Positions 2,157 to 27,098 of a DNA stretch of 64,000 nt are shown piece by piece (position 1 is the stretch's first letter; the number at the start of each line of letters is the position of its first letter). Position numbers and translations under genes: made by a program. Below the pieces are notes generated by a model. That model ran no database searches. It saw nothing but the letters and a program-made list of their open reading frames with translations, and was not told the origin of the DNA. This DNA comes from a virus. Its lineage: Duplodnaviria; Heunggongvirae; Uroviricota; Caudoviricetes. The DNA lies in the IMG/VR virus record IMGVR_UViG_3300029852_000006, one strand, 5' to 3'.

Positions 2157-2663
2157 ATGAATACCCCCTACGCTCTCATTCTCACTGATTCCACCCACGC
2201 ACCTACCGTCATCGGCCATTATAACAGCCGCCAAACGACAGATGAAATCCGTTCCGCTATTCGCAGATACTTCACTGATGACGAACCGGTTCTCCCCAAT
2301 GTCCGCCACAGCCCCACCACCGTTTACTCTTACGGCTACAACTACAGCAACGAAGCCATTCACGAAAAAGCTTCTTATCCTTACACCATTGATGATTTCT
2401 TCGCTGACCCTCTTCGCAAGTCTCTGTTCGTCATCGGCTGCTATAACTACCTGCACGATGTTATTGACGGCAAAATCAAACCTACCAAGATGACGGAAGC
2501 CAAAGCCGAAACGAAACCTCTCACTCTCCAGTCCGCCACCACCCTTGCCGCTCCTCCTATCGCACCCACCATTCCCATCACCAAAACGAACACCGTTTCC
2601 TGTTCCGCCACCAAAACCTGCGCTGCCTACAAACCCGTGCCCCAGAGTCCCGCAAAACCGTAA
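2157..2663 (+). CDS. hypothetical protein
   Basis: RBS GAAAGGAAG before ATG 2157 (six-frame ORF begins 2139). Confidence 0.45.
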   Translation: MNTPYALILTDSTHAPTVIGHYNSRQTTDEIRSAIRRYFTDDEPVLPNVRHSPTTVYSYGYNYSNEAIHEKASYPYTIDDFFADPLRKSLFVIGCYNYLHDVIDGKIKPTKMTEAKAETKPLTLQSATTLAAPPIAPTIPITKTNTVSCSATKTCAAYKPVPQSPAKP

Positions 2664-3155
2664 CACAAGCGCAAAACCCGTGCCCATTCCAAACGCCGGA
2701 CGCACCGCCCTCTTATATATCTATCTTTATCTTTATATATAAACGCTATTGACGTGCTGTTTTCAGCCCGATTTTGAACCTTCCTAGTCGTATTGACACG
2801 CAATTTTTAGGCCGTTTTGGAACATTACTTTTACTAACCCACCACTTTACCGGGTTTGTACTGCTCAAAAACGAACATATCTTGTCATCGGCCATGCAAC
2901 ATTCTCACCGCATCAAGCAACATTTTTACGGCTTGAACATTTGCGAAAACTTGTATATAATCAAAATCACAAAGTCACCCGCCAGCATGAAACCGCATCC
3001 CTCTCAGCGCCCCACACAGCCCCTACAGGCCGTGTTTCCTTGTGGCTATGCAGTTTCTCGCCCGTTTTCTTCTCGTTTCTCACAGCGCATCCCAGCCTTA
3101 TTATAATTTGTTCCCCGCCCTGCCCCGTCTGGCAGGTTTTATTTCACCCTGTTAT

Positions 3156-3173
3156 TTACAAGTTTTCGCAAAC
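3156..3173 (+). promoter_or_regulatory. conserved near-palindromic motif TTACAAGTTTTCGCAAAC (copy 1 of 3)
   Basis: Same 18-mer recurs at 26407 and 34343, each ~20-30 nt upstream of an RBS/ATG; core GTTTTCGCAAAC is an imperfect dyad. Confidence 0.45.
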
Positions 3174-3190
3174 AAAAGGAGTTGACCCCC

Positions 3191-3316
3191 ATGTATATCA
3201 TCATCCCCACCCACGGCCATTACGAGATCCGTGACGGTCCCACCTTCATCCAGTCCGCCGATACTTACCGCGAAGCCTGGCATGAACTCGCTTCCCTCAC
3301 CAATTCCCCAACCTAG
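3191..3316 (+). CDS. hypothetical small protein (41 aa)
   Basis: RBS AAAGGAG + ATG just downstream of conserved operator-like motif. Confidence 0.2.
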   Translation: MYIIIPTHGHYEIRDGPTFIQSADTYREAWHELASLTNSPT

Positions 3317-3384
3317 GCAATCGTGCATTCCGCACTTGCAAATATTTTTTACATTGGCTACACGCCAAAGAAAGGACACACATT

Positions 3385-3831
3385 ATGTCTACTGTCAAAA
3401 TCAACGAAACCACCTTCTCCATCACCTCCACCCTGACCATGGCCCAGCTGAAGACCCTCCACACCAAGGCTCCCCAGGCCCTGCAGCTGACCAAGCCCGG
3501 CAAAAAGTCCGGCGATGACGATGAGATCATCTTTGCCATTGCCCCGTCCGCCAAGCAGAGCATGTCCACCTACGGCATCTGCTTCGCCAAGTCCGCCTTC
3601 GGCACCGACAATGCCATCTACGTTGAGGACCTGCCCGCCGACCTCGAAAACATCACCAAGGCCAAGGAGCATGTCGCCGAGCGCATCGGTTTCTCCAAGA
3701 AGCACCTGGATGAAATCGAAACCCAGGCCGCCGCAACCCTGGCTCAGCTCAAGGCCGACCACGATGCCATCATCGCCGGCATTGAAGTTTCCACTCCGGG
3801 CACCCCGGCAAACGACACCGCCGCTCAGTAA
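3385..3831 (+). CDS. hypothetical protein (148 aa)
   Basis: RBS AAAGGACA; codon usage consistent with neighbours. Confidence 0.5.
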   Translation: MSTVKINETTFSITSTLTMAQLKTLHTKAPQALQLTKPGKKSGDDDEIIFAIAPSAKQSMSTYGICFAKSAFGTDNAIYVEDLPADLENITKAKEHVAERIGFSKKHLDEIETQAAATLAQLKADHDAIIAGIEVSTPGTPANDTAAQ

Positions 3832-3937
3832 GCAAAACGGCCGGTGCTCACCCCCACAACAAGCAGCCCGGCCATGATTTTTCTTCCCCAATCCACAATC
3901 CAACACAAAAATATTTCATCATAAGGAGATTTTCACC

Positions 3938-4165
3938 ATGATTAACGTCACTATCGTCGATAACCTGCACCGCAACACCTACCCCGTTGACCCCAACACC
4001 ACCCTGCGCTCCGTCCTGGAAGCTCATGATGTCGATTACACCACCGGCCAGACCAAGCTGGATGGTTCCTCTCTGGCCGCAGGCGACCTGGATAAGACCT
4101 TCGCGGACTTCGGTATCGCGGAAAAGTGCTACATGGTCAACATTGCCAAGCAGGATAACGCCTGA
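3938..4165 (+). CDS. small protein, candidate ubiquitin-like protein (75 aa)
   Basis: 75-aa acidic protein directly upstream of a JAB + E1-like gene pair; does not end in Gly-Gly (ends ...KQDNA), so the Ubl call rests on context only. Confidence 0.35.
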   Translation: MINVTIVDNLHRNTYPVDPNTTLRSVLEAHDVDYTTGQTKLDGSSLAAGDLDKTFADFGIAEKCYMVNIAKQDNA

Positions 4166-4300
4166 TTGATTCCTCTCCGGTGGTGTCTCTTCCCCCACCG
4201 GGGTGCTGCCTTACAGGAACAGCCTCCACGCGGCAGGCAGCGGGCAACGCAAACGCGGCCAATCGTTCCAAATCTAATCAGAAAGGAAAAATGAATCACC

Positions 4301-5641
4301 ATGCCACTCCCCAATTACACCGATATTCTCAACACCATGTCGCCCACCATCACATGGCAGGACAACACCCCATGCCGCACCACTTTCAGAGTAATTTTCA
4401 CCAAGGCTCTGGCCTGCACGGTTTATCCCCGCCTCACCGCAGGCAAAACCCTTGCCATCCTTGGCGATGATTCCGGCCTCCAGCCTTCCACTAACCCGAA
4501 TGAATCCCTTCTGTTCTTTGTCACCGATAAAGCCGCCATCCCCGATTCCATCCAGGAAGTCAAGGATATTGGCGCTTATCTCTCTGATAAGTACAAAGTT
4601 TATCAGGATGCAGTCGCCCGTATCACCATCGTCCAGTTCCAGCGCGACGGCGACCTCTACAGCAGTGTTTTTTACCAGCGTGTTGCCTCAGCCATGCCCC
4701 GCCTGCTGCCCTGGCTCTTCAAGGATCACCCCCTCACCTCCGATGAGCTCGCTTACCTCCGCGCCCTCTCCACCCCGGATACTGGCTCGGAAACCCTCGC
4801 CCGGATGGCGGAGCCTCTTTATAACAAAACCGATCTGCCCTCCAGAGCCGTAGATAAAGCGATTGAATCCCTCTTCAAAGGTACCATTGACCGCCGTAAA
4901 GCGGATCTCAGGCGCTCTATTGAAAACCTTTACCGTCAGTTGAAAGAAACCCGCGCCCGTATCTCTGGAATTTTTACCAACATCACCAGCATCAACTGTG
5001 AGCTGACCGGCCTTGACTCCAAAGATGAATCTACCTTTATCACGGAACTCAAGGATTATCTCCACACCCAAAAAGGTATTTCCGTCGATACTGACGATGG
5101 AGCGCTTCTCCTCACCATCACCACATTCCTCTCCAACTATGACCCGGATGATGTCGAAACCTTTATCTTCAACAGTTACCACCCCTATGAGGATCTTACC
5201 GGCGAAGAAGAACACGATGTCCGCATCCTTTTCCGGGCTGTGTTCATTGACCATATCTTCAAAATCAAACTCGCTGCCACCTATAAGCTTAATTACGACT
5301 GCCATGTCACAGCCATGTCCGATGAAATCAATATGAACGTTGTTCAGGCTGTTCCCAACCCTCACATCAATCATCACTCCTGCCTCGGTAACTATGAACC
5401 CATGCTGGAGGATGCCGAGGATCGCCGAGATTTTATTGCCGCCATTGCCATCTGTCAGCAGAGCGCCAGCAGCATGAACCTCGTCGAAACTATCTCCACC
5501 AAATATTTCTTTAATGATTTTGCCACCGCCTATCACACGGATATCCCCGTCATCCTGACCGCCGCCGGTGAATCCATCACCCCCAAGCAGGCCATTGAAC
5601 AGCTCAAATCCGCAAATGATTCCGTTAAGGAAGGAGAATAA
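4301..5641 (+). CDS. hypothetical protein (446 aa); possible E2-like component
   Basis: Sits at the E2 position between candidate Ubl and JAB/E1. Segment 'PNPHINHHSCLGNYEP' loosely resembles the UBC HPN...C-L active-site region. Speculative. Confidence 0.5.
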   Translation: MPLPNYTDILNTMSPTITWQDNTPCRTTFRVIFTKALACTVYPRLTAGKTLAILGDDSGLQPSTNPNESLLFFVTDKAAIPDSIQEVKDIGAYLSDKYKVYQDAVARITIVQFQRDGDLYSSVFYQRVASAMPRLLPWLFKDHPLTSDELAYLRALSTPDTGSETLARMAEPLYNKTDLPSRAVDKAIESLFKGTIDRRKADLRRSIENLYRQLKETRARISGIFTNITSINCELTGLDSKDESTFITELKDYLHTQKGISVDTDDGALLLTITTFLSNYDPDDVETFIFNSYHPYEDLTGEEEHDVRILFRAVFIDHIFKIKLAATYKLNYDCHVTAMSDEINMNVVQAVPNPHINHHSCLGNYEPMLEDAEDRRDFIAAIAICQQSASSMNLVETISTKYFFNDFATAYHTDIPVILTAAGESITPKQAIEQLKSANDSVKEGE

Positions 5642-5643
5642 CC

Positions 5644-6408
5644 ATGCAAGTTATCCACATTGATCAGACCGCTCTGGATGCCGCCATCGAACTCTATCGC
5701 CAGCAGCTCCTCGCCGGCTCTGTTAAGCTCGCAAAAACCAAAGCAAAAGATAAAATCAACATCAATTTTACCGCCGATGCTTGGGCCAAACAGTCCCGCC
5801 TCATTGATGATTTCACTTCCGAAGTCGCCTGGCACGGCCTCATGCGCCAGCTTTCCCCCACCGAGTATGAAATCTATGATATCCTCGTCTACCCCCAGCA
5901 GGTTACTGGTGTCACCGTCGAAACCGACCAGGATAAATACAACGACTGGCTGCTCTCCCAGCCCGATGAAATCTTCAACAACATCCGCTACCAGGCCCAC
6001 AGCCACGTCAACATGTCCCCTTCCCCTTCCGGCGTTGATGACGAAAACGAGTCCAAAATTGTCAATAAGCTCAAGGGCAATGATTTCTACCTCTTCATGA
6101 TCTGGAACAAGCGCGGCGAGTTCACCGCCCGCCTGTATGACTACGCCGCCAACAAAATCTACGATAAAGATGATATCTCTGTCACCTACACCGATACCCT
6201 CTCCGATTTTGCCGCCACCGCTCAGTCCCTTGTCACCAAAGCTCTGCCCGTCTATTCCGCAGCGCACCCTCCCGTCAAGCCCACCGGCGGTACCGTGCCC
6301 CACGTCGTCTGGGATAACGCCGCCCGCTGCTGGATGGACGATGACGGCAATTATTACGACCACTACCCCACCTATTACGATTATCACACCAACGGAGGTG
6401 CCTTATGA
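5644..6408 (+). CDS. JAB/MPN (JAMM) metallopeptidase-like protein
   Basis: Exact JAMM signature H-S-H-x7-S-x2-D ('HSHVNMSPSPSGVDD') with upstream Glu. Confidence 0.7.
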   Translation: MQVIHIDQTALDAAIELYRQQLLAGSVKLAKTKAKDKININFTADAWAKQSRLIDDFTSEVAWHGLMRQLSPTEYEIYDILVYPQQVTGVTVETDQDKYNDWLLSQPDEIFNNIRYQAHSHVNMSPSPSGVDDENESKIVNKLKGNDFYLFMIWNKRGEFTARLYDYAANKIYDKDDISVTYTDTLSDFAATAQSLVTKALPVYSAAHPPVKPTGGTVPHVVWDNAARCWMDDDGNYYDHYPTYYDYHTNGGAL

Positions 6409-7088
6409 ATCTTGCCAAAAGCCTGGATGTCTTCTCCCCGCATGATGTCAAAGGCCGCATCCACATCATTGGCTGCGGTTCGGTCGGCTCCACCATCGCG
6501 GAGCTTCTTGCCCGCTATGGCCTGACCAACTTCACCCTCTACGATTTTGATACGGTGGAAAAGAAAAACATCGTCAACCAGATGTTTTTTGATCCTCAGG
6601 TCGGCCAGCCCAAAGTGGAAGCCCTCCGCGATATTCTCTGTGCCATCAACCCGGAGGCCAAAAATGATATCCGTTTGGAACCTTCCGGCTGGAACGGCCA
6701 GCCCCTCTCCGGTTACGTTTTTCTTGCCGTGGATAACATCGAGATCCGCCAGAAAATCGTGGATGCCAACCGCTTTAACACCTTCATTAAAGCCATGTTT
6801 GATGTCCGCACTGCCCTCTTTGACGCCCAGCTCTATGCCGCTGATTGGTCAGACCCCAAACAGGTCGCGGAATTTCGCGCCACAATGAACTTCACCCATG
6901 CCGAAGCCACCGCCCAGGTTCCCGTTTCGGCCTGCGGCACTACCCTCGGTGTTGCCCCCACGGTTCGCGTTGCCGCCTGTTATACCGTCACCAACTTCCA
7001 AAACTTCATCAAAAAAGGCGAGCTGATCCATACCGGTCTCTCCGCCCCCTTCAACCTCCAGGGTGAATCCGCTTTCCTCGGTCTGTAA
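6405..7088 (+). CDS. E1-like ThiF/MoeB-family adenylyltransferase
   Basis: Rossmann motif 'IIGCGSVGSTIA' (GxGxxG) followed by 'YDFDTVEKKNIVNQ' matching the ThiF/E1 D-x-D-x-V-x-x-S/K-N-x-x-R/N-Q block. Confidence 0.75.
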   Translation: MNLAKSLDVFSPHDVKGRIHIIGCGSVGSTIAELLARYGLTNFTLYDFDTVEKKNIVNQMFFDPQVGQPKVEALRDILCAINPEAKNDIRLEPSGWNGQPLSGYVFLAVDNIEIRQKIVDANRFNTFIKAMFDVRTALFDAQLYAADWSDPKQVAEFRATMNFTHAEATAQVPVSACGTTLGVAPTVRVAACYTVTNFQNFIKKGELIHTGLSAPFNLQGESAFLGL

Positions 7089-7478
7089 CCCTGTCGTCTT
7101 AGCGTTCCATTAAATTTCGTTTGTGTTGTATACTGTAAGCTTTTTCGCTTCAGGCTCTTCGGTCATATCCAAGAGTACGAATTTGTTACCCCGACCCACC
7201 CCTCCACCTGATCCTGGCCAGCGGATCTGACGGTGACGCCCGAACACATATCGCATCGTCCAAACCTTTTGACACACACCGACTGGTAGAAGAATACTAA
7301 GCCCAATCAATGAAAATTCGAAGATCAGGGTCTAATGGTAGCACAAAGTCCCATCAGAAATCAGTTCAAAAGCTCAACAGTTCAAGGGCATTCTCTTCGG
7401 AATCGGCGACGGAGTCGTTCCTGCAGCCACTATCTCCCATCAGAACACAAACATAACCCTCACATAAGGAGCACTCGT
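7089..7478 (+). ncRNA. candidate structured ncRNA upstream of the reverse transcriptase
   Basis: 390-nt ORF-free stretch in a tightly packed region. Contains the conserved hairpin motif (7155-7185) and a C-rich tract; 9-nt inverted match gtttgtgtt / aacacaaac near its two ends. Confidence 0.3.
7155..7185 (+). repeat. conserved hairpin motif copy 1 (stem ctctt/aagag, loop CGGTCATATCC, then tacGAATTTG)
   Basis: One of 7 copies sharing the loop CGGTYATAYCC closed by co-varying stems. Confidence 0.6.
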
Positions 7479-8669
7479 ATGGTTTACATCACTTATAACT
7501 GCCCGGAACGTTTCCGGGAAATGACGTTTGAAGAACTCCTCCGCGGGGATTTTAACCTCGCAAACCTTTCCACCGGCGGCCACGGTGCTACCCGTACCGT
7601 CATCTGCAACAAAGTTCCTCCCCGCATCATGCGCATCACCAAGGTGGAGCAAATGATCCTCCAGCTCCAGGCGTTCAACCAGCAGTATGAATCCCTTCGC
7701 CTCACCACTCCCCGTTCCAGCCTGTACAACCATTTCCCCATCCCCAAAGCCTCCGGCGGTCTCCGCTGGATCGATGCCCCCAATTCCGACTTAATGAAAG
7801 CCCTCAAGGAACTCAAAACCCTCTTTCAGTCCTGGATGTTTGCCGACCACCACACCTGCGCTTTCGCCTATGTCGAGGACCGCAGCGTCCTCTCCGCCGC
7901 CAAACGTCACCAAAAGTTCGGTGCCTGGTGGTTCGCCCACTTTGATTTCCATGGCTTCTTCCCCTCCACCACGCCGGAGTTTGTCCTCTCCCAGTTTGAA
8001 CTCATTTATCCTTTCAACCTCATCCTTGCCAGCCCCACCGGCCGCGCGGAACTGATCAAAGCCCTTGACCTCTGTTTCCTTAACGGAGCATTGCCGCAGG
8101 GCACCCCCATCTCCCCGCTCATCACCAACATCATGATGATCCCCTTTGACCACGCCTTCGCCAAGGCTGTCAACCATTTTGAATCCGGCAAGCATAACCC
8201 GGACGGAACCCCCATCACCGACCGCCTCTGCTACACCCGCTACGCCGATGATATCATCGTCTCCTGCAAAGTTATCTTCAATTTCCATGCTGTCGAGCGC
8301 CTTATTGTCCAGCTTCTCTCCCAAATGAACGCCCCCTTCACCCTCAATGAAAGCAAAACCCAGTTCCGCTCCCGCGCCGGCCGCAACTGGATTCTTGGCG
8401 TCATGCTCAATAAGGATAACCAAATTACAGTCGGCTACCGCAAAAATAAAATCTTCAAAGCCACCATTGATACCTACTTCCGCGATAAACAAAAGGGCAA
8501 AAAGTGGCCGGATGAAGACCTTCAGTCCTTCCAGGGCAACATTACCTGGTTCAAGGATGTCCAGCCCGATACCACCAAATACATTATCCAAAAGTATAAC
8601 GCCAAATATGGCCTTGACCTTGAATCCTGTATCAAGGCCGATCTCGCCCCGCCCAGCGTAACCGCATAA
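7479..8669 (+). CDS. reverse transcriptase (stand-alone; retron/DRT/Abi-like class undetermined)
   Basis: RT motifs 1 (IPKASGGLRWI), 2 (DFHGFFPS), 4 (LPQGTPISPLITNI), 5 (YTRYADDIIVS), 7 (LNESKT). RBS AAGGAG before ATG 7479 (six-frame ORF extends to 7335). No maturase or endonuclease domain. Confidence 0.85.
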   Translation: MVYITYNCPERFREMTFEELLRGDFNLANLSTGGHGATRTVICNKVPPRIMRITKVEQMILQLQAFNQQYESLRLTTPRSSLYNHFPIPKASGGLRWIDAPNSDLMKALKELKTLFQSWMFADHHTCAFAYVEDRSVLSAAKRHQKFGAWWFAHFDFHGFFPSTTPEFVLSQFELIYPFNLILASPTGRAELIKALDLCFLNGALPQGTPISPLITNIMMIPFDHAFAKAVNHFESGKHNPDGTPITDRLCYTRYADDIIVSCKVIFNFHAVERLIVQLLSQMNAPFTLNESKTQFRSRAGRNWILGVMLNKDNQITVGYRKNKIFKATIDTYFRDKQKGKKWPDEDLQSFQGNITWFKDVQPDTTKYIIQKYNAKYGLDLESCIKADLAPPSVTA

Positions 8670-8740
8670 TCCAAAAAAAAATCAATTTGTTTTCAAAGGT
8701 AAAGTTTCGTTTTGATTTTATTTCAAGTCAAAGCCAAACA

Positions 8741-8771
8741 CCCTCCGGTTATATCCGAGGGTTTGAATTTG
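8741..8771 (+). repeat. conserved hairpin motif copy 2 (stem ccctc/gaggg)
   Basis: Compensatory stem change relative to copy 1, identical loop family, followed by tttGAATTTG. Confidence 0.6.
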
Positions 8772-9231
8772 TCCCCCTGTCCCACCCCCTGGCCAGGACT
8801 CACTCACGTCGCAGCAGCGACTGCATCGAGTCATCGTACTCCCAGACACACGATGGGTCGCCCCACAGCGCATCAGAAAGGGCGGGCCAATGCCCCAGTC
8901 TTTAACAAAATAAGCGAGCAACATCGGAGGCCGCCCCAATCAAACTCAGAAGATCAGTCATCACCACCATCCGATTCCGGTGGCTGCCTCTCATCAGCTT
9001 TCACAAATTGATTTTTATTTTCTCCATTCCGCCCCATGGTTCCGGGGCATTCCCAGGCGCTTCAGTTGTTTCTTCTTTTCTTAGCAGCTCGTTGCGCCCC
9101 CTGTTCGTGCGCCTGGTAAACGCACGGTCATGGTTTTACTTTCCTTTCGCTGGGCCTCCGGCCATCCCAATGGTTGGAGCGCCTGGTAATACCCCGGAAC
9201 CCGCCCACAACAATGAATTCAGGTGATTTTT

Positions 9232-9522
9232 ATGAAACTTATCTCCCCCGGCTCACGGGTCAAATTCTTTACCGTAGGACCAGTTATCAGCCCGGATCAC
9301 AACCCCCTGAAAACTAAATTTCAAATCATCTATCTCTCCGGCACCGTCCAAGAAGATATCGGCAACTGCGTCATCGTCTGGACCGATGATTCCCGCACCT
9401 TCCACGTCCCTCATGGATACATCACCGAAATCCAGGACCCCAACGATCCTTTCACTTATAAGTCTCCCAATACCGTACCTTCCCCAACCGTTTCTTTTGA
9501 TGAAATTATTTCCGCCCTCTAA
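9232..9522 (+). CDS. SFD-L-tail family small protein, paralog 1/13
   Basis: RBS AGGTGA; C-terminus ...VSFDEIISAL. Confidence 0.55.
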   Translation: MKLISPGSRVKFFTVGPVISPDHNPLKTKFQIIYLSGTVQEDIGNCVIVWTDDSRTFHVPHGYITEIQDPNDPFTYKSPNTVPSPTVSFDEIISAL

Positions 9523-9540
9523 TTCATACAGGTGATTCTT

Positions 9541-9804
9541 ATGGACCCTTATTACATTCAACCCGGCACTCCCGTCTATTTTGAAATCAGAACGCTACAT
9601 GGCATAGCCCGTCGTACCCTCCACGGCTTTGTCCAATCTGATACTGGCGCTTATGTCACCGTTATTGTCCCCAGTATGAATAACAAAACATTTATCGCCA
9701 CCCATTCCGCCTTTACTTATGACGATACCCCCGAAGCCGTCACCCCCGCTCCTCTCCCCACTCCTTCCATCTCTTTTGATGAACTTATTTTTCAAGGCAG
9801 GTGA
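9541..9804 (+). CDS. SFD-L-tail family small protein, paralog 2/13
   Basis: RBS AGGTGA; C-terminus ...ISFDELIFQGR. Confidence 0.55.
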   Translation: MDPYYIQPGTPVYFEIRTLHGIARRTLHGFVQSDTGAYVTVIVPSMNNKTFIATHSAFTYDDTPEAVTPAPLPTPSISFDELIFQGR

Positions 9805-9810
9805 TTCCCC

Positions 9811-10107
9811 ATGACCCCCTTCCTCCCCGGCTATGAACCTGGCACCTGGGTCGAGATCGTCTCCGCTCCGGAAATGCTCTGCTCCCTCCAGTATGATTAC
9901 GGCACCACTTTCACCCTCACCGATTCTCTCCCCTATGATCCTATCCTCGGCAAGCAGGGCAAGATCGTTGCCATCCTCGGCAAATCCGGCCTTCTCCGCC
10001 TCTATTTTCCTCACAGCGATTCCTACCACATCATCCCGCCCAGCATGATCTCCCGCACTATCCCCGCTCCGTATCCCAGCTTTGATTCTCTTATCGCAAA
10101 CCTCTAA
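9811..10107 (+). CDS. SFD-L-tail family small protein, paralog 3/13
   Basis: RBS AGGTGA; C-terminus ...PSFDSLIANL. Confidence 0.55.
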   Translation: MTPFLPGYEPGTWVEIVSAPEMLCSLQYDYGTTFTLTDSLPYDPILGKQGKIVAILGKSGLLRLYFPHSDSYHIIPPSMISRTIPAPYPSFDSLIANL

Positions 10108-10133
10108 CCCCCATCACAGAAAGGAAGCCTACC

Positions 10134-10490
10134 ATGAATCCCACCTATAAAGTTGGTGATGTTGTCCAAATCATCTCCGAAGAAGAAGTTCGTTCCCATC
10201 CTACGGATGATTGCGGCAATTTTATTCTTATTCCTTCTATTTACGGCGCAAACGATTCTTTTCACAGAGATAAACTTCCTGTTTGCGGCTGTCCGGCTGT
10301 TATTACCCGCATTTCCAAAGGCAATGAAAGGAACCTATACGATCTCACCCCTCTCTTCGCTGAAGATAGAACCGTTTTTAACTGGAATGACTGGTTTTTC
10401 TCCGCCGCTGAATTTCACCCTCGTGTCGTTTCTCCGCCCCCGGTTCCTTCCATGTCCTTCGATGATCTTCTGAAAGGAGCTGCGCAATGA
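10134..10490 (+). CDS. SFDDLLKG-family small protein, paralog 4/13
   Basis: C-terminus ...MSFDDLLKGAAQ; stop overlaps next start (ATGA). Confidence 0.6.
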   Translation: MNPTYKVGDVVQIISEEEVRSHPTDDCGNFILIPSIYGANDSFHRDKLPVCGCPAVITRISKGNERNLYDLTPLFAEDRTVFNWNDWFFSAAEFHPRVVSPPPVPSMSFDDLLKGAAQ

Positions 10491-10855
10491 ATTTCCCCAC
10501 CTACCCCGTTGGCACCCTCGTTCAAATCATTTCTGACGCAGAGTTTGACGCTCTTCCCAAAAATGATGCTGGCTGTGCGCTGTTTCTCGATCCCCTTCCT
10601 AATGGTAACGCAGATTATATACCCCCTAAACGCCGTTCTCTTTGTGGCAGCATCATGCAAATTGATCGTAAACTTGACGCTTCTGGTTTTTACTTCTTAA
10701 AACCCTACGATCTCTCCACCGCTGTCGATCCCTCCGCAGCTGCCAAATTCTCTTGGAACTCCGCTCTTTTCTCCCCCAATGAATTCCACCCCTATGGTAC
10801 CCCGGTTCCCGTTTCCCCTGTTTCCTTTGACGATTTCCTGAAAGGAGGCATTTGA
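10487..10855 (+). CDS. SFDDLLKG-family small protein, paralog 5/13
   Basis: C-terminus ...VSFDDFLKGGI. Confidence 0.6.
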   Translation: MNFPTYPVGTLVQIISDAEFDALPKNDAGCALFLDPLPNGNADYIPPKRRSLCGSIMQIDRKLDASGFYFLKPYDLSTAVDPSAAAKFSWNSALFSPNEFHPYGTPVPVSPVSFDDFLKGGI

Positions 10856-11239
10856 ATGCCAGCCCCCTACCCCACCTACCACGTCGGTGATCGCGTCATC
10901 GTCCGCCAGTGGGATGATATGATGGAAGAATTCGGCTCCAATCCTTACGGTGATATCACTGTTCATCCCAATAAACTTTCTTTTATTCTTGACATGAAAC
11001 CTTACTGTGGCAAAGAGTTTATTGTTGTCAAAATCGTTCATGATAAAGATCTTCCTGATGAACCCATTTATTTTCTCAATTATTCACCGGATGTTTATGT
11101 AGACCTTAATGATGGTGATTCTCCTCGCGGTTGGTTTTTCACCTCTGCCATGCTTCTCCCCGCAACTCTCCCCAATGAACCCCAAAACCGTATTCCCACC
11201 CCTTCTCTCACCTTCGATGATTTACTTCAAGGAGTCTAA
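10856..11239 (+). CDS. SFDDLLKG-family small protein, paralog 6/13
   Basis: N-terminal 'YPTYHVGDRVIVRQWDDMMEEFG' module; C-terminus ...LTFDDLLQGV. Confidence 0.6.
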   Translation: MPAPYPTYHVGDRVIVRQWDDMMEEFGSNPYGDITVHPNKLSFILDMKPYCGKEFIVVKIVHDKDLPDEPIYFLNYSPDVYVDLNDGDSPRGWFFTSAMLLPATLPNEPQNRIPTPSLTFDDLLQGV

Positions 11240-11244
11240 TAACC

Positions 11245-11601
11245 ATGGATACTACCTTTAACCCCAATGACTATCCTACCTACCAAATTGGCGATCGAGT
11301 TACCATTCGCCAATGGGACGATATGAAGTCAGAATTTGGTTTGAACAGATTTGGTGACATTAAAGTCCCAAAAGCTTGTTTCACAGAGCCTATGAGAAAA
11401 TATTGCGGGAAGACACTCACCATTGTCCGTAAAAACCACCATCTATCTCCGAATTCTGATTGTTACTATTTCGACGGTAGCACAATGGTTTTTACTTCCC
11501 TCATGTTTGAACAATCTTATCCCACAGTTGTCTCCTCCACTCTCTCCTTTGATGATTTGTTGAAAGGAATTACCTCTCAACTGGCAAATCCCCAAGCATA
11601 A
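11245..11601 (+). CDS. SFDDLLKG-family small protein, paralog 7/13
   Basis: N-terminal 'YPTYQIGDRVTIRQWDDMKSEFG'; C-terminus ...LSFDDLLKGITSQLANPQA. Confidence 0.6.
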   Translation: MDTTFNPNDYPTYQIGDRVTIRQWDDMKSEFGLNRFGDIKVPKACFTEPMRKYCGKTLTIVRKNHHLSPNSDCYYFDGSTMVFTSLMFEQSYPTVVSSTLSFDDLLKGITSQLANPQA

Positions 11602-14969: not shown

Positions 14970-15362
14970 ATGACCTTCCAAGACCTCTACCTCGGCCAGC
15001 GCGTCCGCATCCTCTCCTGGGATGAACTCAATCACACCGGCTATCATGATAGTGCCTATGGTATTTACTTGCCGGACAACTCATTCTTTAATAACGGAAT
15101 GAAATACCTCTGCGGTGCCACTCTCACCATCGTAAAAGAACCTTCCTATTCTGACAGCGATGAAGATTATCTTTCTCCCGATATCTTCCAGTTCGATGAT
15201 CCTCTTCTCTCTTTCTCTCGTTCTTATGGCGCCGCCTTCCCTACAATCCGCCACTGGTCCCTATCACCCGCCATGCTCGCCCCTCTTAACGAATCCTCTC
15301 CCGTCATTCCTCCCGCCATCTCTTTTGACCAACTCCTTGCCGGAGGTGAACTCCCTCAATGA
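14970..15362 (+). CDS. SFDDLLKG-family small protein, paralog 8/13
   Basis: C-terminus ...ISFDQLLAGGELPQ; RBS GAGGTGA. Confidence 0.6.
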   Translation: MTFQDLYLGQRVRILSWDELNHTGYHDSAYGIYLPDNSFFNNGMKYLCGATLTIVKEPSYSDSDEDYLSPDIFQFDDPLLSFSRSYGAAFPTIRHWSLSPAMLAPLNESSPVIPPAISFDQLLAGGELPQ

Positions 15363-15694
15363 AACCTCTTAACCCTGCCGATTATCCTACCTACAACGTC
15401 GGAGATAAAGTTACCATCCGTCAGTGGGATGATATGGAATCCGAATTTGGTTTGGACGAATATGGTGGAATCAAAGTCCCAAAAACTTTCACAAAGTTTA
15501 TGAAAAAATATTGCGGACAAACACTTTCCATTGTTCATGTAAACCGCTATCCATCTCCAAAATTTGATTCTTATTTTTTCGACGGTACTTCCGTGGTTTT
15601 TTCTTCCCCTATGTTTGAACAATCCAAACTCCAATCCGTTCCGCCCTCTTCTCTCTCTTTTGATTCTCTTCTCCAAGGTGGTGACTTCTTTTGA
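15359..15694 (+). CDS. SFDDLLKG-family small protein, paralog 9/13
   Basis: 'YPTYNVGDKVTIRQWDDMESEFG'; C-terminus ...LSFDSLLQGGDFF. Confidence 0.6.
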   Translation: MKPLNPADYPTYNVGDKVTIRQWDDMESEFGLDEYGGIKVPKTFTKFMKKYCGQTLSIVHVNRYPSPKFDSYFFDGTSVVFSSPMFEQSKLQSVPPSSLSFDSLLQGGDFF

Positions 15695-16098
15695 TCCCCG
15701 AAACAACCGATCTTTTTTACCCCACCATCCTTCCTAACCAAGAAATTCTCTTTCCCTCCTTCGCTCAATGTAAAGCTCTCTATGATGATTTTCGCCAAAG
15801 CTCTGATCTACGTAAACAATCCGTCGCTCCCTATATGAACTTATCAGCTCGGTTTCATTTCGGTTTCTGTCCTGTTTCTGACGTTACTGCCGTTTCCCGC
15901 GGTGATTTTGATTCCCCTCAAATCGTTACCGCCACAGGTATCTGCAATCAAAATTTCTTTCAGTTCACCACCCAGGATGGCAAAATGTATTACGCTTCAA
16001 AAATTTATGCCGCCTACCAATCTCTTATGGAATCCTCCCCCGTGCCTACTCCTCCCCCTTCCGTTTCCTTTGATGATTTACTTCAAGGTGGTGCTTAA
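15691..16098 (+). CDS. SFDDLLKG-family small protein, paralog 10/13 (TTG start)
   Basis: C-terminus ...VSFDDLLQGGA. Confidence 0.5.
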   Translation: MIPETTDLFYPTILPNQEILFPSFAQCKALYDDFRQSSDLRKQSVAPYMNLSARFHFGFCPVSDVTAVSRGDFDSPQIVTATGICNQNFFQFTTQDGKMYYASKIYAAYQSLMESSPVPTPPPSVSFDDLLQGGA

Positions 16099-18014: not shown

Positions 18015-19151
18015 ATGAAAATCGTCAACACCGGCATCAAGTACCAGATCTACAATGATTCCCTTCGCACCTTCGATTTCCTGCCCGCCGCCACCTACTG
18101 CGTCCGTTTCTCCAAGCTCAGCGGCTTCTACCTGGAATCCCGCCCCAATATGCAGGTCAACGAAACGGTCTATGGCCCGCATGAATCCAAGGTCGAAAAA
18201 GTTATAGCGTCCTACAACGCTTTCCCGCGTTCTCTTGGCGTCATCCTCAGCGGCGCAAAAGGTATCGGCAAGTCCATGTTTGCCCGCCTGCTCTCCACCC
18301 GCGCCATCTCTGCCGGCTTGCCCGTCCTCATTGTCGATGAAGCCATCCCCGGCATCGCCTCCTACCTCGAATCCATCGACCAGGAAGTCATGATCCTCTT
18401 TGATGAATTCGATAAAACCTTCGCTCACCCCTCCGATGATGATAAAACCGATCCTCAGTCCACCATGCTCTCCCTGTTCGATGGCACCTCCAACGGCAAG
18501 CGCCTCTTCGTTGTCACCTGCAATGATCTCAAAGGTCTCAATGATTTCCTTGTCAACCGTCCCGGCCGCTTCCACTACCACTTCCGCTTCGATTACCCCA
18601 CCGCCGATGAAATCCGCACCTACATGCAGGATAAGCTCAAGCCGGAATATTATGACCAGATCGATGCCGTCATCGGTTTTGCCGGTCGCGTTGACCTCAA
18701 TTATGACTGCCTGCGTTCCATCTCCTTTGAACTCAACACCGGCCTGCCTTTCACGGAAGCCATCAAGGATCTGAACATTGTCAACCTCAACGCTGAGCGC
18801 TATAACATCACCATGAAATTCGCAAACGGTATTGTCTATACCGCCAGCAATGTCCGCCGTGATCTCTTTGACCCCTCCTCGGAAGAATACGTTCGCTTCT
18901 TTAACAAAAACGGCGATTTTATCTTCGAAGTCACCTACAACAATGATTCCGTTCAGTTCGATAAAACCTCCGGTACTCCCTTTGTTGAAGGCAAGGACCT
19001 CACATTTGAATACCGCCACATCTCCGATGATGAACTCTCTGACCCGGATGAAAAGGCTTGCTATGACGCCATCACCCAGATCAAATCCACCACTCCCGCC
19101 GCTCTCGCCTTCCGCCGCACTCGCTCCCGCGATATCCACTACGCCGTCTAA
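18015..19151 (+). CDS. AAA+ family ATPase
   Basis: Walker A 'GAKGIGKS', Walker B 'ILFDEFD', sensor/arginine region 'VVTCNDL...NRPGRFH'. Confidence 0.7.
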   Translation: MKIVNTGIKYQIYNDSLRTFDFLPAATYCVRFSKLSGFYLESRPNMQVNETVYGPHESKVEKVIASYNAFPRSLGVILSGAKGIGKSMFARLLSTRAISAGLPVLIVDEAIPGIASYLESIDQEVMILFDEFDKTFAHPSDDDKTDPQSTMLSLFDGTSNGKRLFVVTCNDLKGLNDFLVNRPGRFHYHFRFDYPTADEIRTYMQDKLKPEYYDQIDAVIGFAGRVDLNYDCLRSISFELNTGLPFTEAIKDLNIVNLNAERYNITMKFANGIVYTASNVRRDLFDPSSEEYVRFFNKNGDFIFEVTYNNDSVQFDKTSGTPFVEGKDLTFEYRHISDDELSDPDEKACYDAITQIKSTTPAALAFRRTRSRDIHYAV

Positions 19152-26447: not shown

Positions 26448-27098
26448 ATGACTACCGAATCCATGTCCATTCACCGCGCTCTGGTGGAACTCAAAACTAT
26501 TGATTCCCGGATCATCAAAAAGATCGATTCCGCCAAGTTCTGTGTCGCCGCCAAAGCCAAAGCTACCAAGCTCGGTGCAATCACGGTGGATGAATTCAAA
26601 ACATCTGCTCAGGCCAGTTATGATTCCGCTATGGATCTCATCAATCGCCGCAACGCCATCAAGGCCGCTGTCTCAAAGTCCAACGCGGTCACAGAAATTT
26701 CAGTGAACAATAAAACTTATACCGTGGCCGAAGCCATCTCTCTCAAGCAGCACGGCATGGAATACCTGGACTACCTGCGCAGCCATATTCAGGCCCAGTA
26801 TTCAAACGAAACCTCTCAGATCACCTCCGCCAATCTCCGTGTGGAAGCCAAGGCCGATGATATGGTCAAATCGATCTGCGGCGGCGATTCCAAAACCAAG
26901 GATGCCGATCCTGAAACTGTCGCCAAGATCCGCAACACCTATCTTGAACAGAACTCCATGGAGCTGGTCGATGGCCTCACCAAAGGCTGTACTCAAATCA
27001 TTGAAGACCTGCAGTCCCAGATCAATTCCTTCAACAACGAAATTGATTCCGCCCTCTCTGTTTCCAACGCCATTACCCAGATCACATTCAGCTACTAA
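26448..27098 (+). CDS. hypothetical protein (216 aa)
   Basis: RBS AGGAGG. Confidence 0.5.
   Translation: MTTESMSIHRALVELKTIDSRIIKKIDSAKFCVAAKAKATKLGAITVDEFKTSAQASYDSAMDLINRRNAIKAAVSKSNAVTEISVNNKTYTVAEAISLKQHGMEYLDYLRSHIQAQYSNETSQITSANLRVEAKADDMVKSICGGDSKTKDADPETVAKIRNTYLEQNSMELVDGLTKGCTQIIEDLQSQINSFNNEIDSALSVSNAITQITFSY

Follow-up and report, generated by a model that had tools for sequence, protein, structure and literature searches.

Two questions are raised by the genome of a tailed phage (IMG/VR record IMGVR_UViG_3300029852_000006): whether a cluster of four of its genes encodes a ubiquitin-like (Ubl) conjugation pathway, and whether the reverse transcriptase (RT) gene lying beyond the cluster belongs to it. 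Within the window, that is, the whole 64,000-nucleotide stretch of this DNA that was analysed, the four open reading frames were found on the plus strand with exactly the sizes and positions given in the original prediction. They encode a 75-aa protein in the Ubl slot (3938-4165), a 446-aa protein in the E2 slot, here named E2L (4301-5641), a 254-aa JAB/JAMM metallopeptidase (5644-6408), and a 227-aa single-domain E1 of the ThiF type (6405-7088). The gap between the E2L and JAB genes is 2 nt, and the JAB and E1 genes overlap by 4 nt. The cassette is larger than was first stated, and further includes an upstream partner protein (P148), a spacer RNA, and a retron-like ncRNA.

The JAB and E1 assignments are solid, as both domain profiles and invariant motifs back them. 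The E1 matched ThiF (PF00899) with an E value of 2e-22 and carries the predicted Rossmann motif IIGCGSVGSTIA together with the D-x-D-x-V block (DFDTV). It consists of one domain of roughly 225 aa, and the GxGxxG motif, D47, D49, N55, K70, D110, R135, and C177 are invariant in 74 of 74 distinct relatives, while the canonical ATP-binding Arg of N-x-x-R-Q is replaced by an equally invariant Asn58. Cys177 (in VSAC), the catalytic cysteine expected in the crossover-loop region, sits at the position of MoeB C187 and ThiF C184 as read from the sequences, the printed MoeB alignment spanning residues 17-84 only. The JAMM signature H-x-H-x7-S-x2-D predicted for the JAB protein is present (HSHVNMSPSPSGVDD), and residues E60, H119, S120, H121, S129, and D132 are invariant in all 102 distinct relatives. 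The best PDB profile match of the JAB protein was Rpn11, spanning about 120 residues; the Prok-JAB profile matched four of seven members, and the PADLOC JAB models gave an E value of 8e-4. Given the ThiF and JAB profile matches, the invariant motif residues, and the recurrence of the same gene order in more than 150 independent phage contigs, the cassette is not a product of chance.

In PADLOC the E1 matched CBASS E1-E2 (Cap2-type) models best, and its best NCBIfam and single-sequence PDB matches were ThiF and MoeB. The latter would suit a sulfur-carrier or other non-conjugating adenylation system resembling ThiS/ThiF or MoaD/MoeB, in which a thiocarboxylate is made for cofactor, tRNA, or DNA modification and the 446-aa protein, whose E2 fold is unproven, is not an E2. 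We consider this highly improbable: the E1 family profile slightly favoured UBA5 (58 bits) and Uba1 (56 bits) over MoeB (49 bits) and ThiF (35 bits), a comparison covering the Rossmann part only; the E1 lacks a CxxC zinc site; no rhodanese/sulfurtransferase domain or Gly-Gly end accompanies it; and no biosynthetic genes are conserved near the cassette among the compared loci. The presence of a JAMM peptidase and of precursor-type Ubl tails and fusions also argues against it. Neither of the two outcomes on which the original prediction was to be given up, a 75-aa protein lacking a beta-grasp fold together with a 446-aa protein lacking a conjugation-related fold, and an E1 grouping with MoeB/ThiF, was observed.

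The 75-aa protein is net acidic, as predicted (11 D/E vs 6 K/R), and was found to have the beta-grasp fold of ubiquitin-like modifiers. No match above threshold was obtained with it in Pfam, NCBIfam, PHROGs, or PADLOC, and a PDB profile search gave coiled-coil or noise matches only; the only recurrent weak match was DUF2604, seen for 11 of 17 members (best E 0.005). According to the list of open reading frames the protein ends in NIAKQDNA, and the Gly(-Gly) C-terminus expected of ubiquitin-like modifiers is absent. This unusual end, pointed out in the original prediction, is real and conserved: homologues share K-x-D-N-A, with variable extensions beyond the Ala in about one third of them. From this sequence pattern, the mature C-terminus is likely Ala75, within a tail that is flexible in the predicted structure (pLDDT 54). 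The papers on Bil systems hold a C-terminal Gly to be obligatory, and the Ala end counts against a conjugation reading on that standard.

The protein in the E2 slot was originally described as having a loose UBC-like patch, PNPHINHHSCLGNY. The patch is present, but no significant sequence or Foldseek match to E2s accompanies it: E2L had no match above threshold in Pfam, NCBIfam, PHROGs, or PADLOC, PDB profiles gave coiled-coil or noise matches only, and a Foldseek search of the E2L model against the PDB returned nothing at E <= 0.001. When the C-terminal domain was compared by hhalign with four human E2s, the probability was 0.08%; the best path in that comparison pairs NPHI...CLG with HPNI...CL. 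Indirect evidence points to three parts: an alpha/beta domain at the N-terminus, followed by a long coiled coil and, at the C-terminus, a UBC/RWD-like domain in which Cys361 is the candidate catalytic residue. Cys361 is invariant in 283 of 283 distinct E2L sequences, with conserved His and Asn residues adjacent. It is preceded by N353-P354-H355, in a motif that reads PNPH rather than HPN, and the eight residues from N353 to Cys361 equal the spacing in UbcH5. Members of the family are 446-510 aa long and fall into about 1,700 clusters, which are unmodelled.

Just upstream of the Ubl gene, a conserved partner protein of about 132-148 aa, designated P148, is encoded at 3385..3831 (plus strand). 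It precedes Ubl in nearly all loci, and its family comprises 972 clusters, with no match in Pfam or the PDB, nothing above threshold in NCBIfam, PHROGs, or PADLOC, and no invariant Lys. In three loci (L048, L049, and L050), P148 is joined in frame to the Ubl C-terminus, with ...KADNA running directly into AYIKIAG; the fused P148 part was matched by hhalign at 97% (E 8.5e-11). A 209-aa protein (P0302) was considered as a further fusion and rejected, since its start is simply over-extended.

The natural linear Ubl-P148 fusion, together with the non-Gly terminus and the altered E1 active site (Arg to Asn), would also fit a cascade in which Ubl is joined to a non-lysine acceptor, such as msDNA/ncRNA or the P148 N-terminus, or one that ends at the E1, with E2L serving as scaffold or target. 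One locus (L093) keeps Ubl, E1, and RT while E2L and JAB are missing, and the RT/ncRNA always adjoins the cassette in RT-seeded loci; both count in its favour. Against this stands Cys361: present in every one of the E2L sequences and next to a conserved His and Asn, it is best explained as a catalytic centre. The literature searched likewise offered no precedent. We regard such a scheme as very improbable.

The spacer between the Ubl and E2L genes contains a putative HDV-like self-cleaving ribozyme (4205..4270, plus strand) of the F. prausnitzii type. It matched the full RF02682 model with 39.2 bits (E 1e-4 on 6.8 kb), which is under the Rfam gathering threshold of 44, and P1, P3, and P4 are kept by compensatory changes. 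A homologue in a related locus (L003) scored 35.2 bits against the same threshold, and its P1 and P4 stems also carry compensatory changes. Directly 5' of the predicted cleavage site lies a hairpin, CCGGTGG...CCACCGG (4178..4201, plus strand), which is kept in L003 with a compensatory change (CCAGTGG/CCACTGG). The ribozyme core motif occurs in one copy per locus, in the Ubl-E2L spacer every time, and in other relatives a tRNA-Leu(UAA) occupies the spacer in its place; one or the other was found in 59 of 91 distinct spacers. This swap at one operon position represents a compact natural case of transcript punctuation. We know of no description of an HDV-like ribozyme as intra-operon punctuation interchangeable with a tRNA.

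Downstream of the cassette, the RT named in the original prediction is real, matching RVT_1 (9.5e-15), the retron St85 family model NF038233 (2.6e-49; 168 bits, below the cutoff of 235), and PADLOC RT_II-A (9.9e-44). Its reading frame is open from 7335, and, by comparison with relatives, Met49 (7479) is the probable start codon, which places the gene at 7479..8669 on the plus strand. The description of this RT as stand-alone was not borne out: it travels with the cassette and is preceded by a conserved retron-like ncRNA (7119..7452, plus strand), recognised by its inverted repeat and covariation. The terminal stem of 9 bp pairs 7119-7127 with 7444-7452, and 5' hairpins lie around 7133-7176. 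Across 12 divergent loci, 90.3% of cells were paired, compared with 37-46% when the partners were slid, and compensatory changes were found in 16 of 22 pairs, a level reached by none of 500 shuffles. A G directly follows the 5' arm in 12 of 12 loci (G7128 here) and is a putative branch point, so that the terminal inverted repeats, msr hairpins, and branching G of a contiguous retron ncRNA are all represented. The retron RT motifs read differently, with T-S-A-F-A for NAXXH and I-T-V-G for VTG, and no long hairpin of the msd stem-loop kind appeared in the MFE fold (z -0.04). Rolling-circle coding of the DRT2/Neo type was rejected, as no consistent stop-free concatemer frame exists between the ncRNA arms.

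The RT lies less than 3 kb beyond the E1 in 95 of 99 loci, and all RT-seeded loci with enough upstream DNA carry the cassette. A BLASTP comparison of 15 divergent loci found the same six genes in 14 or 15 of them, with a lower count for P148, which HMM searches recovered from every locus. Genes on either side, up to 9 kb away, vary and recur in no more than 7 of the 15; identity among loci was 20-30% for E2L and 43% for the RT. The order P148–Ubl–E2L–JAB–E1–ncRNA–RT is a conserved island amid variable flanks. All loci may come from one phage lineage, in which case the adjacency could partly reflect shared ancestry. Phage collections yielded only one match, an unannotated 35-kb faecal phage record, and plasmid collections yielded none. 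The original prediction had also pointed to a nearby array of small proteins with a C-terminus resembling a processable Ubl-style tail; the array members compared by BLASTP occurred in no more than one of 15 further representative loci, and therefore give no evidence that the array supplies substrates.

The coupling in both directions over deep divergence, and the turnover of the flanks around six linked genes, bear on whether the cassette and the RT are two independent neighbours: a self-contained Ubl cassette and a separate RT/ncRNA, for example defence or superinfection-exclusion cargo, in an order inherited by the lineage. These observations argue against independence. On its side are loci with the cassette and no RT (L009/L105 and L032), an unrelated ORF of 268-291 aa that lies between E1 and RT in many loci (total gap up to about 2.3 kb), an ncRNA that could have its own promoter, and the survey of Mestre et al. 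(2020), in which no retron type is assigned a ThiF, JAB, or ubiquitin partner. On balance, we judge independence to be unlikely.

Conjugation is backed by the Ubl fold, the processing-type C-terminus, the in-frame Ubl-P148 fusion, the JAMM and E1 motifs, and the tight E2L-JAB-E1 spacing. The shared gene set, the linkage of RT and cassette, the ncRNA covariation with its invariant G, and the ribozyme or tRNA in the Ubl-E2L spacers further favour the module. Counted against a single module are the lack of a significant match for E2L, Asn58 of the E1, the lack of an invariant Lys in P148, the Ala end of the Ubl, the loci lacking RT or E2L-JAB, the RT without NAXXH, and the ncRNA without a long msd hairpin. 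Weighing both, we lean towards a phage-encoded Ubl conjugation pathway forming one conserved module with P148 and the downstream retron-like ncRNA and RT.

From the observed folds, motifs, conservation, synteny, and RNA covariation, we infer the chemical steps, target, and biological role of this pathway as follows. The P148-Ubl part of the transcript would be severed from the enzyme genes, by the HDV-like ribozyme in this phage and through tRNA processing in its relatives, which would allow the modifier to be produced in excess. Judging from the behaviour of its family, the JAB would trim Ubl precursors, whether they carry variable tails or are fused to P148, so that Ala75 becomes the exposed end; it would probably also reverse conjugates. 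The minimal E1, of the homodimer type, would adenylate the Ala75 carboxylate and then load Ubl onto Cys177, from which it would move to Cys361 of the large E2L; choice of the target would fall to the N-terminal domain and coiled coil of E2L. Candidate targets are P148 (possibly at the N-terminus, an arrangement mimicked by the natural fusion), the RT/msDNA complex, and host proteins. By analogy with the regulation of CD-NTases by Cap2/Cap3 in type II CBASS, the RT/ncRNA may act in concert with the cascade, whether by sensing, as a partner under its control, or as its target. More tentatively, the block of seven parts (P148, Ubl, the ribozyme or tRNA, E2L, JAB, E1, and the retron-like ncRNA with its RT) may be a single machine and a core feature of a large gut Clostridia phage lineage. 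The RT/ncRNA would then be regulated by, or be a substrate of, an Ala-ended Ubl cascade with a new giant E2-like family. If so, it would represent a new retron type, and we know of no earlier case of a phage that encodes a full Ubl conjugation pathway to serve its own needs.

The complete prokaryotic Ubl-E1-E2-DUB pathways described so far are, to our knowledge, bacterial anti-phage systems (Bil, Bub, and CBASS Cap2/3), and the cassette is none of Bil, Bub, CBASS, or PRTRC. Its gene order matches the Ubl-E2-JAB-E1 order of BilABCD (Hor et al. 2023 preprint; Chambers et al. 2023 preprint), and the Bil JAB pre-processes Ubls with short C-terminal overhangs comparable to the tails seen here. In contrast, the Bil E1 combines two adenylation domains (IAD and AAD) with a zinc site and a CYS insertion domain; BilB is a compact E2 with its catalytic Cys at residue 138 and a CEHH motif in type II, unlike the coiled-coil E2L with its N-P-H...C motif; BilA ends in an invariant Gly; and Bil is a bacterial defence, whereas phages carry the module described here, in linkage with P148 and an RT. 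Membership of Bil type I or II was rejected on the E1 domains, E2L size, and Ala end. In Bub (Ye et al. 2024 preprint, PMC11601596), the Ubl is made fused to a pathway protein and freed by the pathway peptidase, comparable to the Ubl-P148 fusions; Bub differs in its oxyester (Ser) intermediates without catalytic cysteines, where Cys177 and Cys361 are invariant here, and in its peptidase-E1 fusion and Ser-His protease. A PRTRC cassette was rejected, since among models A, B, C, E, F, and ThiF only PRTRC_ThiF was matched (23 bits vs a cutoff of 144.75) and the other proteins had no PRTRC match. ThiS/ThiF and MoaD/MoeB pairs share a beta-grasp protein and a single-domain ThiF-fold enzyme with a Cys; in place of their Gly-Gly, sulfurtransferase, and zinc site, the cassette has a JAB, precursor tails, and an E2-like protein.

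Among retrons, type II-A/St85-like systems (Mestre et al. 2020) are the closest, as retron models give the RT its highest scores and the ncRNA lies immediately upstream; the differences are the absence of NAXXH/VTG, a score below the NCBIfam retron cutoff, and no obvious long msd hairpin. A Ubl cascade, the conserved neighbour here, is listed in that survey for no retron type, and no prior description of the cassette combined with a retron-type RT was found in the literature. The cassette is a variant of known Ubl conjugation operons, and its coupling to a retron may be new. Type II CBASS, with a single-adenylation-domain E1 and a JAB beside a nucleotide/nucleic-acid enzyme, offers a design analogy for a conjugation-regulated RT, with the differences that CBASS has no free Ubl and uses the CD-NTase C-terminus as substrate, that its Cap2 is an E2-E1 fusion whereas E2L and E1 are separate genes here, and that no CD-NTase or effector was matched among the cassette proteins by Pfam, NCBIfam, or PADLOC profiles. 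Being phage-borne and conserved in hundreds of contigs from gut phages, the pathway suggests that viruses of bacteria use ubiquitin-style tagging. To the known systems it would add a Ubl with a reactive Ala end instead of Gly, an E1 without the canonical Arg, and a large E2-like family, and would tie conjugation to a retron-type RT.

Four open reading frames, at exactly the positions and on the + strand given in the original prediction, encode a 75-aa small protein ending in NIAKQDNA (Ubl, 3938-4165), a 446-aa E2-like protein containing PNPHINHHSCLGNY (E2L, 4301-5641), a 254-aa JAB protein containing HSHVNMSPSPSGVDD (JAB, 5644-6408), and a 227-aa E1-like protein containing IIGCGSVGSTIA and DFDTV (E1, 6405-7088). 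The last three genes lie close together: 2 nt separate E2L from JAB, and JAB overlaps E1 by 4 nt. Their reading as a Ubl-(E2-like)-JAB-E1 cassette holds in its core.

Neither Ubl nor E2L matched Pfam, NCBIfam, PHROGs or PADLOC. The Ubl homologues (n = 243) are nearly all 75-76 aa long and about 60% identical, a conservation far above that of the cassette enzymes. An AlphaFold2 model built from 32 homologues (pLDDT 91.3) has the order b-b-a-b-b-(3-10)-b with a disordered final six residues and agrees with ubiquitin; by its predicted fold the small protein is a Ubl, as its slot had implied. The non-GG end noted earlier is a family trait: 96 of 158 distinct C-termini stop exactly at K-x-D-N-A, about 50 run 1-14 variable residues past the Ala (A, R, V, AA, CQG and AEAIAAM among them; 37 are only 1-2 aa long), and two more carry longer tails. 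A conserved end with disposable tails is the mark of Ubl precursors. The same has been reported for BilA in the Bil papers (Hor et al. 2023; Chambers et al. 2023). Removal of the Ala may expose Asn74 as the mature end, by analogy with Gly97-Ala98 of E. aridi BilA. Ala75 is the most economical mature terminus, since most copies stop there and the next residue varies.

The JAB protein matched the JAB models of PADLOC (8e-4) and, weakly, Prok-JAB. E60, H119, S120, H121, S129 and D132 are invariant in all 102 distinct relatives, and the best PDB match of the family profile was Rpn11, with about 120 residues aligned and both motif blocks included, which bears out the JAMM assignment. Rpn11 is a proteasomal deubiquitinase. 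The ThiF/E1 assignment was likewise confirmed by a PF00899 match (2e-22), and E1 also matched the Cap2-type E1-E2 models of PADLOC. GxGxxG, D47, D49, N55, Q59, K70, D110, R135 and Cys177 are invariant in 74/74 distinct relatives. The printed MoeB alignment spans residues 17-84 only, and by our reading of the sequences Cys177 would stand at the position of MoeB Cys187 and ThiF Cys184. E1 comprises one adenylation domain (223-229 aa) with no CxxC zinc site, second (inactive) domain or inserted CYS domain, and an invariant Asn58 replaces the canonical Arg of N-x-x-R-Q. The family profile scored 58 bits with UBA5, 56 with Uba1, 51 with TcdA, 49 with MoeB and 35 with ThiF, all over the Rossmann half; because the alignments reach only this half, the family is best seen as a branch of its own.

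A profile of 14 E2L relatives found 1,695 cluster representatives, mostly of 450-510 aa, and ten sampled ones had no match in Pfam or NCBIfam. Among 283 distinct sequences of 20-30% identity, Cys361 is invariant, His355 and Gly363 are each kept in 279, Pro137 in 278, and Asn353 in 252, with Gln instead in 23. Cys361 lies eight residues after Asn353 and is followed by a Leu in most relatives, a spacing identical to that of Asn77...Cys85-Leu86 in UbcH5, although the motif is P-N-P-H rather than H-P-N. In the AF2 model (pLDDT 75.7; 80-90 across most of 241-440), an N-terminal alpha/beta domain and a 45-residue helix are followed by a helix, two strands, a two-helix insert, two strands, the N-P-H...C loop and several helices, an order that, as modeled, is UBC topology plus an insert. 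Against this, Foldseek with the model gave no match, PDB sequence profiles gave only coiled coils, and hhalign with four human E2s was insignificant. E2L is therefore treated as a probable thioester carrier, short of proof.

To define the extent of the module, 203 fetched loci (designated L003 and so on) were annotated with HMMs built in this analysis; they included 80 Ubl-seeded IMG/VR contigs of 109 relatives found by scan, 79 RT-seeded contigs of 221, and, as the remainder, 35 genome-collection contigs together with contigs retrieved through protein identity. The order P148-Ubl-E2L-JAB-E1-RT, in which P148 is a 148-aa protein and RT a reverse transcriptase, was almost universal. Six module genes were common to 14-15 of the 15 others among 16 divergent representatives (P148 to fewer by BLASTP, to all by HMM), whereas genes flanking the module up to 9 kb away on each side were common to at most 7 and usually 1-4; the module is therefore a conserved island, more than part of a collinear genome. 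It is also larger than originally described, with P148, RNA elements and the RT added. The RT is absent from the module in L009/L105 and L032, L093 (4132-6535) has P148-Ubl-E1-RT without E2L and JAB, and all module genes of L124 (8700-11300) are fragmented and apparently decayed. Extra ORFs of 268-291 aa between E1 and the ncRNA (L065 12502-13308, L104 12376-13251) and of 182 aa between JAB and E1 (L006 10907-11455) each occur in only 3/15 representatives.

The RT had been taken to stand alone, which no longer holds: of the 99 loci with enough sequence, 95 have it no more than 3 kb downstream of E1, the cassette is present in every RT-seeded locus having enough upstream DNA, and the E1-to-RT spacer is predicted to fold as a retron-like ncRNA. 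A 9-bp stem (7119-7127 with 7444-7452) has two hairpins after its 5' arm. Across 12 divergent loci, 90.3% of cells pair, versus 37-46% with slid partners, and compensatory changes occur in 16/22 pairs, a level reached by 0/500 shuffles. A G directly follows the 5' arm in 12/12 loci, the place of the branching G in the retron literature; no long msd hairpin was seen in the fold. The RT scores highest on retron models, but it falls under the retron cutoff of the NCBIfam model and has T-S-A-F-A for NAXXH and I-T-V-G for VTG. A DRT2-like concatemer ORF in this region was unsupported. In many related phages the RT is followed, a few kb further on, by a large cluster of 7-13 tRNA genes (L058 7737-9138, L087 7168-8528, L065 16115-17478, L104 15539-17288); an Rfam search of window 2600-9400 found no such cluster.

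The Ubl-to-E2L spacer contains a match to the full HDV-like ribozyme model RF02682 (4205-4270, +; 39.2 bits, E 1e-4), just under the gathering score of 44. Its homologue in L003 (9906-9970; 35.2 bits), where E2L is 52% identical, keeps P1 and P4 by two compensatory changes, which support the putative HDV-like fold. A further copy lies in the same spacer of L017 (701-766), and a simple core pattern was found in 70/203 loci, once per locus and always in this spacer. Other branches have a tRNA there instead, mostly tRNA-Leu(UAA) (L065 9271-9355, L055 9297-9373, L006 8309-8393, L087 325-406, L058 1034-1116, L060 3733-3815); among 91 distinct spacers, a tRNA is present in 32 and the ribozyme core in 27, while the other 32 have neither. 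Because the tRNA stands where the ribozyme does, two different RNA-cleavage elements occupy one operon position. Both kinds are excised from transcripts, and their shared role would likely be to keep the message for P148 and Ubl apart from that for the enzymes.

P148 (3385-3831, upstream of Ubl) belongs to an orphan family of 972 clusters, about 132 aa long and with no invariant lysine. The free-standing gene is missing in L048, L049 and L050, where the Ubl ORF reads in frame past ...KADNA straight into a homologue of P148 (AYIKIAG...; 6462-7082, 6443-7063 and 4945-5565, respectively; hhalign 97%, E 8.5e-11). A cut after Ala75 of the fusion would yield a P148 whose start resembles that of the free form after Met excision (AKITIAG). 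Through this Rosetta-stone fusion P148 is tied to the pathway, whether as a substrate, a cofactor or a co-released product.

Replication genes of phage type are present in the window (PolIII alpha, DnaB-like helicase, primase, exonuclease, NrdD, PhoH), as is an anti-repressor gene. Relatives are IMG/VR contigs 60-150 kb long, some of which encode integrases. The genome-collection matches consist solely of MAG contigs, most of them from bins of gut Clostridia (Oscillospiraceae, Lachnospiraceae, Ruminococcus); one of 141.6 kb has a Ubl 99% identical to that of the window. Almost all window genes are on the + strand. This strand shows a persistent excess of C over 1-64000, with a GC skew of about -0.15 to -0.35 in almost all 2-kb bins. 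Two paralogous RRXRR-HNH endonuclease genes (PF14239 + PF01844; 20221-21906 and 28836-30242, +) sit where this skew relaxes and may be mobile insertions. The replication region also holds a Rep3-type plasmid initiator (59681-61234, -), an AAA/nSTAND-like ATPase (18015-19151, +) and a member of a PHROG "tail fiber protein" family (26448-27098, +). An array of ~100-135-aa paralogues (9223-11601 and 14970-16098, +), ending in P-x-x-SFD(D/E/S)(L/I)(L/I)x(G)(G) plus 0-10 residues, had been noted for a C-terminus that looks like a processable Ubl-style tail; of the 15 other loci with the module, at most one shares the compared members, so the array and the Ubl module do not co-occur. Two tested members had no Pfam or PHROG match.

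The chemistry and the target of the cassette are inferred, as is its purpose, which may be to replicate the phage, take over the host or exclude rivals. Mestre et al. (2020), in their retron classification, do not mention ThiF, JAB or ubiquitin partners, and full-text literature searches pairing retrons with ubiquitin-like or ThiF turned up nothing relevant. The PRTRC models do not match the cassette. The gene order is that of Bil, and Ubl resembles BilA, but the features that define Bil (its E1 architecture, its compact E2 and a C-terminal Gly on the Ubl) are absent here. Bub differs in its Ser/oxyester chemistry (Ye et al. 2024, PMC11601596). CBASS has no free Ubl, whereas the cassette has one, and sulfur-carrier pairs lack the JAB, E2-like protein and precursor tails that the cassette combines. 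This phage-encoded cassette is set apart by its Ala-ended Ubl, its minimal Arg-less E1 and its new large E2-like family, and further by the extra partner P148, the ribozyme or tRNA punctuation, and its tight coupling, in evolution, with a retron-like RT/ncRNA.
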